From positions 1 through 26,222 of the forward strand of contig DATJNL010000226.1 of the NCBI GenBank assembly GCA_035508175.1: a DNA stretch of 26,222 nt, written 5' to 3'. A model generated the notes under the pieces. It saw only the letters and a program-made list of their open reading frames with translations. It made no database searches and was not told where the DNA came from. Shown piece by piece: positions 9,142 to 20,239 of the stretch (position 1 is the first letter of the stretch; every line of letters begins with the position of its first letter). This DNA comes from Myxococcales bacterium. Its GTDB lineage: Bacteria; Myxococcota; Myxococcia; Myxococcales; JAKAPL01. The translations under genes and the position numbers were made by a program.

Positions 9142-10640
9142 TTGAGCCCGCCGAATCTAGCAGAAGAGCGCTTCCGTGTCTGGCTCGCCGGCCTCGGCAA
9201 GCCACGGCTGACCGGCCTCTCGCGCGAGTACGCGCGCCTCGCGTTCGAGGGCGGCCTCTCGGTCCTGCGCGACGGGGCTCCGCAGGCCATTCCGCCCGCG
9301 CTCACAGCGGTGGTGGACGAGCCCGAGCGACAGCGTGCGCGCGCCGACTTGGCTCACCGGCTGCTGCGGGGGATCGTGCGCACCCTGCGCTACCACCTCG
9401 GCGGTATCGGCCGCTCCGAGGCCGATGCCTTGCTCGCCGGCCTGTCGCCCTGGGAGCGCGAGCTCTGCGATCTGACATGGCGCGAGGGCGAATACGTGGC
9501 CATCGCGCGCGCCGACCTCTTCACCGACTCGGCCGGCGTCGATCGGCCGCTGGAGATGAACGCCACCATTCCCGCCATGCAGGCCTACTCCGACGTTGCG
9601 GCCCAAGCCTTCCTGCGGGCCGTGGGAGGGCTGGCAGGACTCTCGCGCGAGCGCATCGACGCGCTCGCCCGCCGCAACGGCTCGAACTCCGACGACCTGC
9701 GGCGCTCGCTGCTCGCGCACCACGAGCGGCTGGGCGGCCGCGGCGACGGCGCCCGCATGGCGATGGTGGCGCGTGCCCAGGATCCGCAGAGCACCGAGCT
9801 CGCCGCGCTCTGCCGCTCCTTCAACGCCGCCGGCCTCGAAGCCCACCGGTGCACCCCCGACCAGATCGGGCTCGACGAGCAAGGCCGTGCGACGCTGCTC
9901 GGCAAGCCGCTGGATCTCATCTACCGGCACGTCTTCGCCCGTCGCATCGAGCCCGCGAGCGCCCTCGGGCGCATCGCGCGCGAGCCGGCTCGCCACCACC
10001 TGCTGAACCCGGTCAACTCGCAGCTCGAGATGAAATCGGTCTTTGCCGAGCTGTCAGCCGCCGCCGCCGAGCCAGCGCTCGCACACGCGATCGGTTTCGA
10101 GCCGGACGAGCTCGCGGCGGCGGCCACGATTCCCTGGTCGCGGCGCCTCGGCCGGGCGCCGACGCCCGACCCCTCCGGCGCCGCAGTCGCGAACCTGCTC
10201 GCGTTCGCCCAGGCGAACCCCAGGCGGCTGGTGCTCAAGCGGAGCTGGGGCTACGGCGGCACGAGCGTGCTGCTGGGCGACGAGATCGAGACCGAGTCCG
10301 GCCAGCAGCGCGCGCGGGACATCCTGGGCACGGCGGAGGCGCGCGAGGTGTCCTGGCAGGATCTCCTCGAGCACTGCGCGCAGCGCGGCGGCTACGTCGT
10401 GCAGGAGCGCGTGGAGCTCGCGACGCAGCGCCACCTGGTGGCCGGAGACGGCGAGCCCGTGTGGCTGGACTGGTACGTGGACGTCTCGGCGTACACGAAC
10501 CTCGGCGTGGAACCGCGACCGACGGGGGCCGTGCGGCGGGGATCGAAGAGCCGCATCGTCAACATCGTGGGCGGCGGGGGGCTGGTGCCGGTGATCCTGC
10601 GGCCGGTGATGGAAGAGCTGCTCGAAGCGGTGGGGGTGTA

Positions 10641-10641
<1 letters not shown>
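9142..10641 (+). CDS. Circularly permuted ATP-grasp family protein (COG2308-like); start uncertain
   Basis: Motifs 'LDLIYRHVFARRIEP', 'RLVLKRSWGYGGTSVLLGDE', 'GGYVVQERVEL' and C-terminal 'NIVGGGGLVPVIL' occur in the order seen in CP ATP-grasp type-2 proteins. In the track, the open frame extends upstream as antisense to the TPP gene. The first in-frame start after the TPP gene is TTG at 9142 and has no RBS, and the true start may lie downstream. Confidence 0.55.
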
Positions 10642-12135: not shown

Positions 12136-13191
12136 ATGAAGAAGGTCATCGCGGTCTTCGCCGCCGCCCTGTGCGCCTGCGCCGCAGCCCCGGTGGTTCC
12201 CGAAGCACAGTTGACGCCGACGGGGAAGATGCCGTGGCCGGCCCAGACGCAGGACCCGCCTGACGCGCCCGCCAAGGTGGCCTACTCGGCGCTGGAGTGC
12301 GAGCGAGAGGCGCGGGCGGCCTTCGAGGGCGGCGACACGGAGTGGGGCTGGCGAGCGCTCGTGGCATGCACCGAGCGGGCCGACTTCATGGACCTCCGGC
12401 CGCTGCTGCGCCGCCCCTGGAAGGACGAGATCGGCCGCCGCGGCAGCGAGGGCGCGGAGATGCTCGGGCGCGTGCTCGTGCGCACCGACCTCGAGCTCGG
12501 CTACGATCTGCGCCGCATCCAGAACGCCGGCATCCCGCTGCTCGACATGAAGCAGGTTGCCGACGATCCCGCCCTCGCAGCCGGCCAGTTCGTGATCCTG
12601 CGCGCCACGGTCGGCTCTCGAAAGGCCTCGCCGAGCGGCGAGCTCGTGCAGCTGTTCGAGCAGAAGCAGGTGGGCTTCTACGAAGGCATGGGCGGCGGCG
12701 AGGAGGGCCAGGGCGGTGGCGGCGCGTTCAGCCCGGCGCAGGTTGCTCGCATGGGCGGCCCCGGAGCGCTGGCCTACGCCGGCACCGGCTACTTCGGCAT
12801 CCCCACGGTGGGCACCCCCCTCGGCCGCGGGATGCGCGGCGGCATGATCGGTCCCGGTCGCCCGTACAGCGGCTGGCCGTACGGCGCCCCCTACAACAAT
12901 GACTACCGCGCCATCGGGCCGGTCTACGGCGAGCAGAGCGAGGACACCGGTCGCGAGGCGGTGCTCGACCTCGACCACCTCGATCCGCGTCTCACCCACG
13001 GCCTCGAGATCGCGGTGCTGGCCCAGGTGGTCGGCGCGGGGCAATCGGACGACTGGTCCGACGTGTGCCGCTCGGGCGACGTGAGCGGCTCGATCACCTG
13101 CCGCAAGGAGCGCCTCCAGGGCCCGCCCACCGCGACGCTCAAGCCCGTTCGGATCTGGATCCTCGAGGCGAGCGACAGCGACGAGCCGTAG
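12136..13191 (+). CDS. Hypothetical lipoprotein with a Gly-rich central region
   Basis: ATG at 12136 with GGAG 6 nt upstream. Signal 'MKKVIAVFAAALCACAAAP'. The 75 codons upstream in the track are antisense artefact. High GC3. Confidence 0.65.
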   Translation: MKKVIAVFAAALCACAAAPVVPEAQLTPTGKMPWPAQTQDPPDAPAKVAYSALECEREARAAFEGGDTEWGWRALVACTERADFMDLRPLLRRPWKDEIGRRGSEGAEMLGRVLVRTDLELGYDLRRIQNAGIPLLDMKQVADDPALAAGQFVILRATVGSRKASPSGELVQLFEQKQVGFYEGMGGGEEGQGGGGAFSPAQVARMGGPGALAYAGTGYFGIPTVGTPLGRGMRGGMIGPGRPYSGWPYGAPYNNDYRAIGPVYGEQSEDTGREAVLDLDHLDPRLTHGLEIAVLAQVVGAGQSDDWSDVCRSGDVSGSITCRKERLQGPPTATLKPVRIWILEASDSDEP

Positions 13192-13197
13192 CCCCGG

Positions 13198-15981
13198 TCA
13201 GCCGCCGTCGGGTGCGCAGTAGCTGTCGCCCCCGCCCGGGCACGGCTTGCAGAACCAGGCGCCCGGGCTCGAGGGATCGCACAACAGGGTCGTCGAGTTG
13301 CAGAGCTGGCCGAGGACCGGCGAGGCGGTGCACTGGTTCTGGAGGTTGGGGTAGCAGGTCGAGGGCTCGACGCAGTTGGCCGTCGCACCATAGACGAGAG
13401 CGCAGTCCGTGAACGAGCTGCACGCCCCGCCCGAGCCGCCGGTCGTGCCGCCGCCCGTCTTGCACGTGTCCGAGCCACCCGAGCCGACCGACTCGCAGCC
13501 CTGCGCGCAGCTCTCGACCTTCGTGAGCGCGCCGTCCTTGCAGGAGTACAGCGCGCTCGCTGTGCCAGGGATGCCGTGGCCGCCGCAGTACAGGCCGTTC
13601 CCGCTGGGGCAGCCCACGGTCGGGGGCGGACAGACGTCGACGCCCGAGGCCACGGACTCCCAGCTCGTCCACGCCGCAGGGCCATCGTTCTCGTGCCGGC
13701 TCGCGACGAGCTCGTGCCCCGAGTTGATCGCGAACACCTCGACCTGCCCGTGCTCGCGCTTCCAGGCGAACGGCTCGGAAGCCATCGAATCGTCCGACCA
13801 GTGGGAGAACGTCCCGAACCGCCGCGTCGCGGGGTTCATCACCGCGTAGCTGATCCGCCCCGAGAGGCCGCGCACGAACACCTCGACGCGCGAATCGGAG
13901 GTCCCGTCGGGCAGCTTCTGGTCGTCGACGGCCGCCGCCGGCTCGCCCTGGATCTGGAAGCCCTCGTTGATCACCTCGAAACGGGCGAAGCCCGAGGCCG
14001 TCGAGCGCGTACCGTAGAGCTGTCCGTCCATGCCTCGCGCGAAGACGTGCAGCACTCCGGTGGCCGGCTCGCGCACCGCGGTAGGGCGCGACGAGAAGCG
14101 TCCGCCCATCGGCTCCCACCCCAGCCACCCGCCGCCGTTCGCCTGCAAACTGGTATCGTACCAGGCCTGACCGTCGTGGTCGGTGACGAAGATCTGGGCC
14201 CGGCCGTCCTTGGTCAGGATCGGCGCGGCGCCGGTCGCAAAGGGGGCGTGGCCCGCGGCGTCGATCTCCAGCCAGCCCTGGTTCGGCGACGTCGACCAGC
14301 GCCGGGTGGTGGGGTCGTAGTACCGGTGCCAGATGCCCCCCTGCTTGCCCAGACCAAAGACCTCGGGCCGGCCGTCCATCCATGGCCCGCTGTGATCGTC
14401 GTTCCAGCGCAAGGTGGACAGCTGGGTGACCAGCCCGCCGCCGAACGAGGACAGGCCGTGCCAGCCGTTGTCGAAGTAGCCCATCTGCGTCTCCGACTTA
14501 CCGGGCGCGAAGAGCTGCGCCTCGGGGGCGGCCACGAGGCTGATCACGGACGCGACCCCGCACTCCGCCGTGCCCGAGAAGGACTCGGGCGGGTGCCAGT
14601 TGTCTGAGTTGCCGTTCGTCCACGCGTGGTGAGCGCTCCCGGAGAGCTCGCGCGCGAATACCTCCACGTGGCCGTCGGTGGGCCAGTCGACGGCCGAGAG
14701 CGTGCCGTTGTTCTCCACCTGGTCGAGCGCGATGAGGCGGCTGATGCCGAGTAGCCCGGCGCTGCCGCTGCCCGTGGGGTTGAGTCCGCCCGCCGCCGGA
14801 CAGCCGGCGGGGCTGCAGGTCGATCCGGCGCTGCAGACCGTCCCCCCGCAGACGGGCAGGCAGGTGTCCTCGAAGCACACCGAACCGCCGCCGCAGTTGT
14901 AGGAGCTCCCGCAGTCCTGAGGAACGCACGCCCCCTCGACGCAGATCTGTCCGGACTGGCACTTCACGCCGTAGCAGGCGGCGTCGACGCAGGTATTCGT
15001 GGCCACGTCGCACACGTCACCCGCCACGCACTGGACGCCGTTCGGGCAGGTCGTCGGCTCGCAGCCCGAGCCCGTGCACAGCGTCCCGGACGGGCAGCCG
15101 CCGCCGTTGAGGCACGCGACGGGCTGGCAGCCGTCGTCGACACACACCTCGCCCGCGGCACAGGTCTGCGAGTCGCAACTCGTGGAAGGACAGCTCCCGT
15201 TGACGCACGCGGAGCCCACGGGACATTCTATCCCGGCGCACGCGAGCTCGGTGCAGGCGCCCTCGTAGCACACCTCTCCCGGCGAGCACTCGACCCCGCC
15301 GTCGCAGGCCGTCGGGTAGTCGACGCCGTAGGCGCACTGCTGCCCGGCGGGCGGCTGGACGCCCACGCAGCCCGCAAAGGTGCAGGCACCCTGGTCGCAG
15401 ACCTCCTGGGCGAGGCAGGCGCCGCCGTCGCAGCTCGTGGGATAACAGCTGCCGGCGGCGCAGAGCTGACCAGAGCCGCAGACGACCCCGACGCACACCG
15501 TGGACGTGCAGGTCCCCTGATCGCAGACGTCGCCGGCGACGCACGACTCGCCGTTGCACGCCGTGGGGTAGCAGCTGCCGTCGGCGCACGCCTGGCCGGC
15601 CGGGCAAACGACGCCGACGCAGGTGGCCTGGGTGCAGACATCCTGATCGCAGACCTCGCCCGGGCCGCACGGCACGCCGTTGCAGCTCGTCGAGGGGCAC
15701 TGCCCCTGCGCATCGCACAGCGTGCCGCTCGGGCACGTCACGCCGACGCAGGCGGAGCTCTCGCACTGGTCGTCGACGCAGACCTGGTTCGCGCCGCAGA
15801 TCATGCCGACGCAGGTGGTGGAGTAGCAGCTGCCAGAGAGGCAAACCTGATCGGCCCCACAACCGGGATCGCAAGAGGCGCCGCCGTTGCTGGCGCCCCC
15901 ATGCCCCGCCGTGGCGCCGCTGCAGCCGGCCAGCAGGCAAGACGCGGCGAGGAAAAACCAGGGGCTCCGGCGGATGCGCAT
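13198..15981 (-). CDS. Secreted lipoprotein: ~15 tandem Cys-rich repeats, 7-bladed beta-propeller-like domain and C-terminal Cys-rich module; non-catalytic paralogue of the gene at 17332..20154
   Basis: ATG at 15981 with GGAGG 6 nt upstream. Lipobox 'FLAASCLLAGCSG'. Repeats of the type 'TCVGVVCPAGQACADGSCYPTAC'. Propeller blades 'HVEVFARELSGSAHHAWT', 'RPEVFGLGKQGGIWHRYYD', 'LHVFARGMDGQLYGTRS', 'VEVFVRGLSGRISYAVM', 'VEVFAINSGHELVASRH'. C-terminal 'CPSGNGLYCGGHGIPGTASALYSCKDG...' matches its paralogue. Confidence 0.8.
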   Translation of the reverse strand: MRIRRSPWFFLAASCLLAGCSGATAGHGGASNGGASCDPGCGADQVCLSGSCYSTTCVGMICGANQVCVDDQCESSACVGVTCPSGTLCDAQGQCPSTSCNGVPCGPGEVCDQDVCTQATCVGVVCPAGQACADGSCYPTACNGESCVAGDVCDQGTCTSTVCVGVVCGSGQLCAAGSCYPTSCDGGACLAQEVCDQGACTFAGCVGVQPPAGQQCAYGVDYPTACDGGVECSPGEVCYEGACTELACAGIECPVGSACVNGSCPSTSCDSQTCAAGEVCVDDGCQPVACLNGGGCPSGTLCTGSGCEPTTCPNGVQCVAGDVCDVATNTCVDAACYGVKCQSGQICVEGACVPQDCGSSYNCGGGSVCFEDTCLPVCGGTVCSAGSTCSPAGCPAAGGLNPTGSGSAGLLGISRLIALDQVENNGTLSAVDWPTDGHVEVFARELSGSAHHAWTNGNSDNWHPPESFSGTAECGVASVISLVAAPEAQLFAPGKSETQMGYFDNGWHGLSSFGGGLVTQLSTLRWNDDHSGPWMDGRPEVFGLGKQGGIWHRYYDPTTRRWSTSPNQGWLEIDAAGHAPFATGAAPILTKDGRAQIFVTDHDGQAWYDTSLQANGGGWLGWEPMGGRFSSRPTAVREPATGVLHVFARGMDGQLYGTRSTASGFARFEVINEGFQIQGEPAAAVDDQKLPDGTSDSRVEVFVRGLSGRISYAVMNPATRRFGTFSHWSDDSMASEPFAWKREHGQVEVFAINSGHELVASRHENDGPAAWTSWESVASGVDVCPPPTVGCPSGNGLYCGGHGIPGTASALYSCKDGALTKVESCAQGCESVGSGGSDTCKTGGGTTGGSGGACSSFTDCALVYGATANCVEPSTCYPNLQNQCTASPVLGQLCNSTTLLCDPSSPGAWFCKPCPGGGDSYCAPDGG

Positions 15982-16038
15982 CGAGAACCTCCGCATGGGC
16001 GATTCTAGCATGGAAAGCCTGGGCGGGCCGCTCCGGCG

Positions 16039-17331: not shown

Positions 17332-20154
17332 CTAGCCTCCGAACACGCAGCAGCTCACGCCGGCGGCCTGGCAGCCCGACGGGCAGGCGCCGCATACCAT
17401 GGTGCCTCCGGTCGCGGGGTTGCAGTCGCTGTTGCTCGTGCAGCTCTGGCCCACCAGCACGGCCGCCTCGGTGGTGCAGAGGCTGGCGCCGGTCTCGCCG
17501 GCGCAGATGAGAGCCGGTTGCTCGCAGACCTCGTCGCTCGCGCAATCGGCGTTGCTGCCGCAGCTGCCGCTGCCCGAGCTCTTGCAGGCGTCCTTGCCGC
17601 CGCTGCCGTTGTCCTGGCAGCCGTCCGAGCAAGCCTCGAGCTCCGTCACCTTGCCGCCGTCGCAGGAGTAGAGCGTCCCGGTCGTGCCCTTCACGCCGTG
17701 GCCGCCGCAGTACAGGCCGTTGCCGTTCGGGCACTCGGGCTCGACCTGGGGCGCCGGGCAGGGGTCGATGCCGGTGGCGATGCGCTCGAAGGCCTTCCAG
17801 CCCGTCTTCGAGTGGTAAGCGGCGCCGAGGTGGCCGTTGGTCGTCACCGCGAAGACCTCGACCCGGCCATCGGGCCGCTGCCAGGCGAAGGGGTCGGAGG
17901 CGAAGTCGTCCTCCGAGAGCCTCACGAAGCGGCCGAACTTGTCCGTCTTCGGATCCATCGTGGCGTAGCTCACCTTATCAGAGAGGCCGCGCACGAACAC
18001 CTCGACCTTGCCGTCGTCGACGGCGGCCGAAGGCTCGCCCGCGAAGGCGAAGGTGTCGTCGATGACCTCGAACTTCGAGAATCCGCTGTCGGTGGAGTGG
18101 GCGCCGTAGAGCTTGCCGTCCTGGCCCCGTGCGAAGATCCGCACCGTGCCGCCCGGGTCGCGCACCGCGACCGGCCGCGATCCCAGCGTGCCGCCGAGCG
18201 ACTTCCAGCCCTTCCAGCCCTCGCCCGTCGACCGGTCGCTCTCGTCGTAGAAGGCCTCGCCCTTGGCGTCCGTCGCGAAGAGCAGCGCGTCGCCGGAGCG
18301 GTTCAGGATGGGACTCGCGCCGGTGGCAAGGTCGCCGCCGAGGCTGTCCCAGCTCGACCAGCGCTTGGTCTCCGGATCGTAGTACTTGTGGTAGATGTGG
18401 TGGTCGCCGGCCGCGAGACCGAACACCTCGGTCCGGCCGTCGTTCCAGCCGCCGCTCTTCTCGTCGTTCCAGCGCAGCGTGGACACCTGCTCGAGGTTCT
18501 CACCGCCGAAGCTCGAGAGGTCCTTCCAGCCCTTGTCGTAGAACGACGACTTCGTGTCGCCGTCGTGGCCGGCCGAATCGAAGACCTCGGCGTGCTCGTA
18601 GCCGGCGAAGCTGACGACCGAGGCCACGCCGCAAGCCGCGGCCGAGCCCGTCAGGTCCTCCGCCGCGTGCCACTTGTCGGTCGCGCCGTCCGTCCACACG
18701 TGCGTCGCGCGGCCGGAGTCGGTGCGAGCGAAGACCTCGATGTGCCCGTCCGCCCAGGTGACCGCGGTCAGACCGCCGTTGCTCTCGACCTGGTCGATCG
18801 GGCTGGCGAGAGTCTCGCAGGTGGTGGTCGACGGGACGTAGCCCTTCTTGCGGATGGGGAGGAAGATCTTGTCGACGTCGGCGTAGGCGCCCGCCTCGTC
18901 CCAGTATTCGTAGATGCTGTGGGGCCGGATGGCCGCGGTATAGCCGTAGTCGAACTCCTCGATCGCGCAGTACTCGGTGTGGTCCCGGTTCAGCCAGCCG
19001 CCCCACAGCTCGACGTGGCCCGTGCCCGCCTGCCAGTCACCGGGAAAGTTGATTGCGTCGCCCGGGGTGAGCTGGCCCCAGTTGATGCGCACGGACAGAT
19101 CGTTGTTCCAGGGGCCGCCGGCCAGCGAGTACGTGGTGTCGCTCGTGCCGAGCTGCCACACGTACGAGACGAAGCCCGAGCAGTCCTGCCGGTAGCCGTC
19201 GGTGTAGCTGTCCTGCGAGTACCAGACCCGGCCGACCCAGTTGAAGGCGCGGTCGAGCATGTCCTTGGCCGAACTCGGCGCGATGGCGCGGATGGCGCTC
19301 TCGTCGCAGGCGGAGAGCACGCCTTCGTCGCCGACGCCCGCATTGTTGCAGACCTGCGTGAAGGCCGGCGGCTCGGAGGGGCCGGTGCTGCCCCCGCTCG
19401 AGCCCGAAGAGCCGGAGGAACCCGACTCGTCGGCGAACCCCTGCAGCGACTTCAGATCGCCGATGTAATGATCGTGATCGAGGCCGGAGGTGTTGTACTG
19501 GAAGATGGTGAAGTGGTCCCACGGGCCGTCCGGCATCTGCGGGCAGGTGTTGCCGGGGTTCGAGATCCAAAGCGGGTACTTCGCGAACTCGTCCGGCACG
19601 CGGGTGCCGAAGAAGTCGGGGTAGGTGTAGATGAGCGGCGTGCGGCCCGTGGCCTGCTCCACGCGGTCCAGGAAGATCTTGGCGCGGGCGAAGGCCGTGC
19701 TCCAGTCGACGCCGCTCGTGATCTCCCAGTCCAGGGCCGGCGGAAGATCTCCCTTCGGCGCCGAGCCGATGATCTTGAGGAACAGATCGGCGGCCTTGTT
19801 CGGGTCACTGGATGGGTCGAAGAAGTGATAGGCGCCGTGAATGAGGCCGAGGTCGGCAGCCTTCTTCCGGTAGCCGTCGTAGGTGTCGTCGGTGAAGTAG
19901 TCGCCCTGGCTCGCCTTCAGGTAGACGAAGCGGACGCCGTTGGCCTTGGAGGCCGCCAGGTCGAAGTTCGCGCCGTTGTTGTTCGAGATGTCGATACCGT
20001 ACGTCGTCGCCCCGCTCTCGCAGACCTGGAGCGCCTCCTGCTCGGCATCGGAGAGCGGCTCGGCGCTCGTGGGAGCGAGCCCGCCGCAGGCCTCGAAGAG
20101 CCCGAGGGAGAGAGAAGCGAGGGTGATGGCGATCCAGCGAGAGTCGGCGTTCAT
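17332..20154 (-). CDS. Multi-domain secreted peptidoglycan hydrolase: GH25 muramidase + NlpC/P60-like endopeptidase + 7-bladed beta-propeller + C-terminal Cys-rich module
   Basis: ATG at 20154 with GGAGG 6 nt upstream. GH25: 'GIDISNNNGANFDLAASKANGVRFVYLKASQGDYFTDDTYDGYRKKAADLGLIHGAYHFF'. NlpC/P60 Cys-His: 'YRQDCSGFVSYVW...GDAINFPG...GHVELW'. Ser/Gly linker 'SGSSGSSGSSGGSTG'. Propeller blades 'HIEVFARTDSGRATHVWTDG', 'TVRIFARGQDGKLYGAHS', 'KVEVFVRGLSDKVSYATM', 'RVEVFAVTTNGHLGAAYHS'. Cys-rich C-terminus. Confidence 0.85.
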   Translation of the reverse strand: MNADSRWIAITLASLSLGLFEACGGLAPTSAEPLSDAEQEALQVCESGATTYGIDISNNNGANFDLAASKANGVRFVYLKASQGDYFTDDTYDGYRKKAADLGLIHGAYHFFDPSSDPNKAADLFLKIIGSAPKGDLPPALDWEITSGVDWSTAFARAKIFLDRVEQATGRTPLIYTYPDFFGTRVPDEFAKYPLWISNPGNTCPQMPDGPWDHFTIFQYNTSGLDHDHYIGDLKSLQGFADESGSSGSSGSSGGSTGPSEPPAFTQVCNNAGVGDEGVLSACDESAIRAIAPSSAKDMLDRAFNWVGRVWYSQDSYTDGYRQDCSGFVSYVWQLGTSDTTYSLAGGPWNNDLSVRINWGQLTPGDAINFPGDWQAGTGHVELWGGWLNRDHTEYCAIEEFDYGYTAAIRPHSIYEYWDEAGAYADVDKIFLPIRKKGYVPSTTTCETLASPIDQVESNGGLTAVTWADGHIEVFARTDSGRATHVWTDGATDKWHAAEDLTGSAAACGVASVVSFAGYEHAEVFDSAGHDGDTKSSFYDKGWKDLSSFGGENLEQVSTLRWNDEKSGGWNDGRTEVFGLAAGDHHIYHKYYDPETKRWSSWDSLGGDLATGASPILNRSGDALLFATDAKGEAFYDESDRSTGEGWKGWKSLGGTLGSRPVAVRDPGGTVRIFARGQDGKLYGAHSTDSGFSKFEVIDDTFAFAGEPSAAVDDGKVEVFVRGLSDKVSYATMDPKTDKFGRFVRLSEDDFASDPFAWQRPDGRVEVFAVTTNGHLGAAYHSKTGWKAFERIATGIDPCPAPQVEPECPNGNGLYCGGHGVKGTTGTLYSCDGGKVTELEACSDGCQDNGSGGKDACKSSGSGSCGSNADCASDEVCEQPALICAGETGASLCTTEAAVLVGQSCTSNSDCNPATGGTMVCGACPSGCQAAGVSCCVFGG

Positions 20155-20239
20155 GGTCGGCCTCCGGTTGCTGGTTAGCAAAGCAAGCGGGAGGCCAAGG
20201 CGTCGGAAGACGAACGCGCTGAAATTACATGTGAATTCT

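Follow-up and report, generated by a model that had tools for sequence, protein, structure and literature searches.

Studies of PLL-type seven-bladed beta-propellers have dealt only with free lectins from the insect pathogen Photorhabdus, although most of the family consists of fusions to wall hydrolases. The binding pockets of these lectins for L-fucose and O-methylated sugars lie between the blades (PMC5584973, PMC12203525). For PHL two kinds of site have been described (PMC5584973), which in the positions of the blade hidden Markov model (HMM) used here comprise Thr12, Trp17 and Trp31 of one blade together with the backbone that follows GG in the preceding blade (hydrophobic site), and Arg4, Glu6 and Trp20 of blade i together with Gln21 and Trp28 of blade i+1 (polar, galactose-type site). 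The present analysis concerns a stretch of 26,222 nucleotides from a Myxococcales bacterium (assembly GCA_035508175.1, contig DATJNL010000226.1, positions 1 to 26,222), referred to as the window, in which two paralogous genes, P1 and P2, each encode a region of seven repeats. An earlier note on this DNA had described the repeats as an unclassified propeller module, possibly a new lectin-like family specific to predatory proteins. The repeat region is almost certainly a PLL-type seven-bladed beta-propeller (Pfam PF26607, Beta-prop_PLL) with the fold of Photorhabdus PLL, PLL2-5 and PHL. The copies in the window are divergent and have lost most of the canonical sugar sites, and they could show what the modules serving lytic enzymes bind.

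Family assignment of the propeller

Both sequence and structure comparisons lead to the Photorhabdus lectins. When P1 was compared with all PDB sequences by phmmer, the top eight matches were eight distinct PLL-family sequences (E=1.9e-37 to 2e-26), including PLL2 (1.9e-37), PLL (1.4e-31), PHL (2.1e-30) and PLL3 (4.2e-29), and the P2 propeller matched across the family with E-values from 7.6e-32 (PHL) to 1.5e-22. An AlphaFold2 model of P1 aa 462-806, made from a 50-sequence alignment, has a mean predicted local distance difference test score (pLDDT) of 88.7 and a predicted template modelling score (pTM) of 0.89, which bears out the proposed propeller fold. The best 22 Foldseek matches of this model in the PDB are all PLL, PLL2-5 or PHL (E ~1e-20 to 1e-22), with template modelling scores (TMq) of 0.82-0.86 over ~355 columns. 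Precomputed PF26607 matches (E<=1e-5) are present on the exact products of both genes, and all 82 relatives from a word-indexed search also carry them. A Pfam release predating PF26607, scanned together with NCBIfam, gave only sub-threshold DUF346 and FG-GAP_3 on the propellers, a negative result that is uninformative because of the age of the release. The DUF346 threshold (PF03984; 22 bits) was not reached by P2 (14.8-18.7 bits) or P1 (12.9 bits), while it is passed by many relatives, including 13 of the 45 in the sub-branch described below.

These comparisons bear on several claims of the earlier note. The proposed relatedness to lectins is supported by PLL and PHL being the closest PDB matches in both phmmer and Foldseek, and the exclusion of the tachylectin, TECPR, PD40 and BNR families agrees with the absence of such Pfam matches. 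A likeness to the AAL/RSL lectins survives only as a distant resemblance of fold (Foldseek TMq ~0.52), as AAL and RSL are six-bladed and no Fungal_lectin (PF07938) match was found in the Pfam scan of P1 and P2. Two results speak for a new family: the older Pfam release gives sub-threshold matches only, and in a scan of 185,579 species genomes with one sub-branch pattern, a non-exhaustive search, the 242 pattern matches included no close relative. However, a confident assignment to a known family, which the note itself had named as the outcome that would tell against it, is what was found: the domain is covered by a Pfam model and by more than 20 crystal structures, with a PDB match at E=2e-37, a Foldseek TM of 0.85 and PF26607 on the exact proteins. 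The new-family reading is refuted by this evidence together with the breadth of the family, and retains practically no probability.

That breadth also disposes of the supposed specificity to predatory proteins. An exhaustive phmmer search over 1.84 billion cluster representatives returned 4119 proteins at E<=1e-3 in many phyla (1168 at E<=1e-10 and 39 at E<=1e-30), and the sources named for annotated relatives include Variovorax, Archangium, Polyangiaceae, Streptomyces, Actinospica, Bacillota and Alphaproteobacteria. In this family the propeller is usually joined to an enzyme that hydrolyses peptidoglycan, for instance GH25, M23, an amidase or CHAP. In the annotated relatives the fusion partners are GH25, M23, DUF1906/Rv2525c-like, C1 peptidase, Amidase_2, Amidase_3 and CHAP domains, with further cases of M10 with PG_binding_1, polysaccharide deacetylase, tyrosinase and trypsin domains. 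In the close sub-branch (n=45), GH25 occurs in 16 members and Rv2525c-like domains in four. Literature on DUF346, PF26607, PLL-like proteins and myxobacterial GH25 predation enzymes yielded nothing on enzyme-fused PLL propellers.

The repeats were also assessed with a 47-position blade HMM built from 191 blades of other proteins only, the window proteins being excluded. This model finds exactly seven blades of ~47 residues each in P1 and seven in P2 (whole-protein E-values of 4e-47 and 1e-40), in agreement with the seven-blade repeat originally proposed. In each protein six of the seven blades reach significance on their own (i-Evalue 1e-5 to 1e-14), the exception being the degenerate blade 2 (E 0.035 in P1 and 0.003 in P2). 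In P1 this blade has low pLDDT at its edges, and its Trp552 is kept in 44 of the 45 sub-branch sequences. Blade 3 is the most canonical in P1. The motif as first described (a hydrophobic strand, 'ARG.DG.L.H', an aromatic residue and 'G.W..W..LGG') agrees with the 47-position family consensus, and the quoted strings IEVFART, AEVFDSA, TEVFGLA, ALLFATD, VRIFARG, VEVFVRG and VEVFAVT were located in P1 aa 464-804. The module is indeed common to both paralogues, which are 47% identical across 509 aa (E=2e-138), an alignment that spans the propeller, with seven blades in each protein, and the C-terminal Cys-rich module.

A further suggestion, that one blade contains an Asp-box-like string, did not hold. 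STDSGFSKF is present at P1 aa 696-704 (window 18070-18096), but it is not an Asp-box, because it aligns to positions 21-31 of an ordinary PLL blade loop with Trp replaced by Phe, and because the Asp is missing from the equivalent string in P2, STASGFARF. The Asp-box or BNR reading was rejected as concerning a single string in a normal blade loop, with no BNR Pfam match.

Divergent blades and lost sugar sites

On sequence grounds the window copies are assigned to a divergent sub-branch of ~45 representatives, of which P1 and P2 are themselves uncharacterised metagenomic members. A single colinear stretch spans the whole 345-residue domain when these ~45 representatives are aligned with it, whereas canonical members align as several repeated stretches. 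Within one protein, the blades share 24% identity in P1 and 22% in P2, compared with 68% in PHL. When blades of the same number are compared between P1 and P2, identity is 39-62%, indicating that the blades differentiated before the paralogues split. Each blade carries its own signature across the 45-member sub-branch.

Two Cys residues are conserved in the same group. Cys517 (window 18631-18633, after blade 1) is present in 43 of 43 sub-branch sequences and Cys808 (window 17758-17760, at the end of blade 7) in 43 of 44. Their conservation suggests that blade 1 may be linked by a disulfide with blade 7 at its C-terminal end, locking the ring. The AlphaFold2 model ends before Cys808, and its least confident part is the segment around Cys517.

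The contact residues given for PHL (PMC5584973) were mapped onto the PHL sequence and expressed as blade-HMM positions. Counted over seven blades, PHL has R4 in 7, E6 in 7, T12 in 5, W17 in 7, W20 in 5, Q21 in 7, W28 in 7 and W31 in 7. The corresponding counts in P1 are 2 (R4), 4 (E6), 1 (T12), 0 (W17), 1 (W20), 0 (Q21), 4 (W28) and 2 (W31), and in P2 they are 3, 4, 0, 2, 1, 0, 4 and 2 in the same order. Gln21 is missing from every blade across the 45-member sub-branch, and Trp17 is retained there mainly in blade 3 (25/45) and blade 4 (36/45). The aromatic pair at positions 17 and 31 is kept only in these two blades, as Y597/W611 and F644/W659 in P1 and as W/W in blade 4 of P2. From these residues an aromatic pocket would be kept in at most two of the 14 Photorhabdus-type sugar sites, at the interfaces of blades 2/3 and 3/4. 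As the canonical sites are mostly lost, no more than one or two PLL-like pockets would be expected, or else a different binding surface. With at most two aromatic pockets left, binding would probably be of low valency and its specificity cannot be read from PLL; neither fucose nor O-methyl-sugar specificity is predicted from the sequence for the window propellers.

This pattern makes a fully PLL-like multivalent lectin quite improbable. Such a lectin would be in keeping with the shared family and fold, with the aromatic pair in blades 3 and 4, and with GH25-fused relatives (P0005, P0007; relatives are numbered in this form) that commonly have Tyr or Phe at position 17 too, in blades that are canonical in other respects. 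However, the polar-site Gln is missing from 14 of 14 blades, the hydrophobic-site aromatics are lost in five of seven, and the R/E/W triad is never complete together with the partner residues of the next blade. Moreover, a blade identity of 22-24% against 68% in PHL implies that the seven sites are not equivalent.

Domain architecture and proposed role

P1 begins with an N-terminal hydrophobic leader, of signal or lipoprotein type, which is followed by a GH25 domain, a Ser/Gly linker, a Cys/His domain, the propeller and a Cys-rich tail. The GH25 assignment is a family match (118 bits against a Glyco_hydro_25 cut-off of 27); in the PDB this region matches the GH25 lysozymes 4kru, 6zm8 and 1jfx and also 4krt (4krt and 4kru being GH25 autolysins). 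The middle domain matches NLPC_P60 below the cut-off of 23 bits, with 14.5 and 19.2 bits (E=0.036 in P1 and 0.0012 in an orthologue). Its motifs YRxDCSGFVS, PGDA.N and GH are invariant among aligned relatives, including the Cys and the His. The AlphaFold2 model of this domain is weak (pLDDT 61.6), as are its Foldseek matches (E ~1e-2), which are nearly all CHAP, Tse1 or endolysin amidases. In P0104, P0126 and P0137 the Cys/His domain is joined directly to a propeller without GH25. Together, the motifs and the modelled fold point to a probable peptidase or amidase acting on peptidoglycan, of NlpC/P60-like or CHAP-like type, and hence to a second wall-cleaving domain in P1, although the assignment is insecure; the domain probably represents an undescribed NlpC/P60-like subfamily.

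P2 starts with a lipobox (LLAGC) and a Cys-rich repeat region of ~365 residues, after which come the propeller and the tail that P1 also has. Its N-terminal repeats match no Pfam family above threshold. In the shared tail the pattern 'CPNGNGLYCGGHG..GT..LYSC..G.....C..GC' is followed by another stretch rich in Cys. Neither Pfam nor the PDB gave a significant match to this tail, which only eight of 227 collected relatives share. Between the two genes lies a third, encoding a 405-aa Cys-rich lipoprotein with no Pfam family. All three genes are on one strand, with intergenic gaps of 75 and 57 bases, and all encode lipoprotein-type signals. The same three-gene arrangement recurs in a JGI metagenome locus (L001), with identities of 55% (P1), 51% (Cys-rich gene) and ~45-47% (P2). 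Upstream of P0001 in that locus, a region resembling the N-terminal Cys repeats of P2 (8792-10009) was apparently missed by the gene caller.

Placed in this architecture, the propeller is an internal non-catalytic module of two exported lipoproteins of an uncultured Myxococcota bacterium rather than a free lectin. It would hold the enzyme on a polymer of the cell envelope, either a glycan or peptidoglycan, so that the GH25 and probable NlpC/P60-like domains of P1 would then act at high local concentration. P2 carries Cys-rich repeats in place of the enzymatic domains of P1. The cell-wall-binding domains of modular lysins follow the same tethering logic. A role of the propeller in targeting to, or retention on, an envelope polymer is on balance favoured, and the combined statement, a PLL-type propeller acting as an envelope-targeting module, is considered likely.

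Several points weigh against this proposal. Neither PHL-type site is found intact in P1 or P2, the hydrophobic site failing on the Trp17, Trp31 and Thr12 counts and the polar site on Gln21 (0/7 in both) and Trp20 (1/7 in both), and with most of these contact residues absent sugar binding could have been lost altogether. The C-terminal Cys-rich module could instead be the real binding element. The Pfam scan detected no catalytic domain in P2, which leaves no enzyme there to be targeted, and no binding data for any enzyme-fused PF26607 domain were found in the searchable literature.

The loss of sugar-contact residues also suits a propeller that binds no glycan and serves as a protein-protein platform, docking the Cys-rich lipoprotein, pairing P1 with P2, or oligomerising. 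Blades that are differentiated yet conserved across orthologues and paralogues (39-62%) are typical of asymmetric interaction surfaces, the cluster of P1, Cys-rich gene and P2 is conserved in L001, and PLL-family propellers form dimers and tetramers (PMC12203525). However, the propeller is carried by many unrelated wall hydrolases, both family-wide and in the sub-branch, which fits substrate targeting better than a specific partner, and a platform is therefore regarded as unlikely. The lipoprotein-type signals raise a different alternative, in which the propeller would bind the producer's own glycans rather than those of prey and so keep the enzymes attached to the surface, matrix or outer-membrane vesicles of the producer itself. 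The lipopolysaccharide of Myxococcus xanthus contains O-methylated sugars, which counts in favour of such anchoring. So do the signals themselves, encoded by all three cluster genes, and the preference of PLL-family lectins for O-methylated sugars (PMC12203525). Against this, the residues of the O-methyl-sugar pocket are largely lost and a lipid anchor alone would already retain the protein on the producer, and this alternative is given a very low probability.

An extension of the envelope-targeting proposal is offered as speculation and is itself doubtful: the sub-branch, whose propellers are often carried by GH25 or NlpC/P60-like enzymes, would have turned a multivalent sugar lectin into an asymmetric receptor that, with the Cys-rich lipoprotein and P2, forms a dedicated three-protein module of uncultured Myxococcota for attack on the prey wall. 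The new specificity of such a receptor may be directed, for instance, at peptidoglycan as such or at an envelope polymer particular to the prey.

The coordinates of these features are collected in Table 1. The G+C content of the window is ~70% and long open reading frames (ORFs) occur in many frames. ORF translation places the true coding strand of both repeat regions on the minus strand, for which the earlier note had given no strand; its intervals correspond to P1 aa 464-804 (17770-18792) and P2 aa 425-792 (13636-14739). P1 residue numbers are counted here from an upstream TTG at 20181 (ORF 17332-20181), and aa 425-792 of P2 in the minus-strand ORF read from its upstream start (13198-16011). 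A plus-strand ORF antisense to P1 (17284-20178, 964 aa) has an Ala/Arg-rich translation and was rejected as a high-GC shadow ORF.

Table 1. Positions of P1, P2, the intervening gene and their parts in the window.
Feature	Position	Strand	Residues	Description
Gene P1	17332..20154	-	940 aa	From ATG at 20154; probable lipoprotein or secreted protein; ORF and translation
Four parts of P1	17332..20154	-		GH25, Cys/His domain, PLL-type propeller, Cys-rich tail
GH25 muramidase domain of P1	19483..19995	-	aa 63-233	Pfam Glyco_hydro_25 E=7.3e-34
Middle Cys/His domain of P1	18799..19386	-	aa 266-461	Between GH25 and propeller
PLL-type seven-bladed propeller of P1	17758..18798	-	aa 462-808	Extended to conserved C-terminal Cys808
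P1 blade 1	18598..18753	-	aa 477-528	HMM 27.2 bits; contains Cys517; key positions H E D T H W T W A
P1 blade 2	18445..18597	-	aa 529-579	HMM 1.3 bits; degenerate, long loop before blade 3
P1 blade 3	18301..18444	-	aa 580-627	HMM 37.4 bits; R, E, Y597, H, W608, W611, GG
P1 blade 4	18157..18300	-	aa 628-675	HMM 25.5 bits; F644, W656, W659, GG
P1 blade 5	18019..18156	-	aa 676-721	HMM 21.6 bits; contains STDSGFSKF
P1 blade 6	17875..18018	-	aa 722-769	HMM 19.4 bits
P1 blade 7	17758..17874	-	aa 770-808	HMM 20.4 bits; ends at Cys808
C-terminal Cys-rich module of P1	17335..17757	-	aa 809-949	Unclassified; aligned with P2 and P0001-P0003
Cys-rich lipoprotein gene between P1 and P2	16039..17256	-	405 aa	Lipobox LAAAC; ORF
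Gene P2	13198..15981	-	927 aa	From ATG at 15981; lipoprotein, lipobox LLAGC; translation
N-terminal Cys-rich repeats of P2	14746-15921	-	aa ~31-422	About a dozen tandem ~30-aa units, 'C.G..C..G..C..G.C.PT.C'
PLL-type seven-bladed propeller of P2	13630..14727	-	aa 429-794	phmmer to PHL and blade HMM
C-terminal Cys-rich module of P2	13201-13629	-		Counterpart of the P1 tail

Both products are on record. The exact 940-aa product of P1 occurs in ENA assembly ERZ27256562 with precomputed PF01183 and PF26607, and that of P2 occurs in the same assembly as P0086 (100% identity) with precomputed PF26607; an exact look-up of P2 with its upstream start gave no record, while the called start (ATG at 15981) did. 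The two records are split over two short contigs of that assembly, k141_4686419 and k141_4777144 (L085 and L086). The window joins these contigs, which suggests that it stems from an improved assembly of the same organism or of one nearly identical to it. A neighbouring class II ribonucleotide reductase has its best identity, 74%, to Myxococcaceae metagenome-assembled genomes and Archangium gephyra, which places the source in a Myxococcota lineage that has no closely related species representative.

Elsewhere in the window, a minus-strand gene running off the window start (3-2597) encodes a bacterial protein homologous to the Major Vault Protein of eukaryotes, with Pfam matches to MVP_shoulder (E=1.6e-25), Vault_3 (E=1.5e-9) and Vault (E=2.9e-6). 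The predicted plus-strand proteins at 2788-5112, 5168-6166, 9142-10641 and 12136-13191 match no Pfam family above threshold. Three of these four have lipoprotein-type leaders, and the 774-aa protein among them has a long Ser/Gly/Thr-rich linker and a weak, sub-threshold Cys motif resembling carboxypeptidase A inhibitor (E=3.7e-4).

Comparison with known systems

The closest described proteins are the Photorhabdus lectins PLL, PLL2-5 and PHL (PDB 5c9o, 6rfz, 6t96, 8q82, 8q83 and 5mxe), which resemble P1 in sequence with a structure-based identity of 22-24%. Lectins and window domains alike have seven W-motif blades of ~47 aa, in which the consensus DGRxEVF...G.L.H...W..W..LGG..S.P is recognisable. 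However, the lectins are stand-alone proteins of ~370 aa, whereas the window domains lie inside lipoproteins of ~930-940 aa. The lectins also have near-identical blades (68%) with as many as seven hydrophobic sites and seven polar ones, while the blades of the window domains are differentiated and most of their sites are lost. The Cys517/Cys808 pair of the window sub-branch is absent from canonical PLL lectins.

Within PF26607, the enzyme-fused relatives share the layout of P1, with a secreted wall hydrolase followed by a C-terminal PLL propeller. They include P0005, P0007 and P0034 with GH25 (so that some share the enzyme as well), P0037 from Archangium with M23, and P0013 from Variovorax with a C1 peptidase. 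Unlike the window propellers, these relatives have near-canonical, mutually similar blades, with the R/E/W/Q/W/W contacts in most of them.

Other lectin propellers are more distant. CV39L of Chromobacterium violaceum (6gxs), also a seven-bladed lectin propeller, is the next-best structural match (TMq 0.78-0.80), but with 14-15% identity and no phmmer match it belongs to a different family. AAL, AFL and RSL (PF07938) are likewise lectin propellers of short repeats with aromatic pockets between blades, but they have six blades, and match at TMq ~0.52-0.56 with 10-13% identity. The wall-binding modules of GH25 lysins offer a functional analogy only, as non-catalytic repeats placed C-terminal to GH25, by which the window propeller would bind a wall or envelope polymer in a similar manner. 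These modules include the choline-binding repeats of Cpl-1 and the SH3-type domains of clostridial lysins, whose folds are unrelated to that of the PLL propeller.

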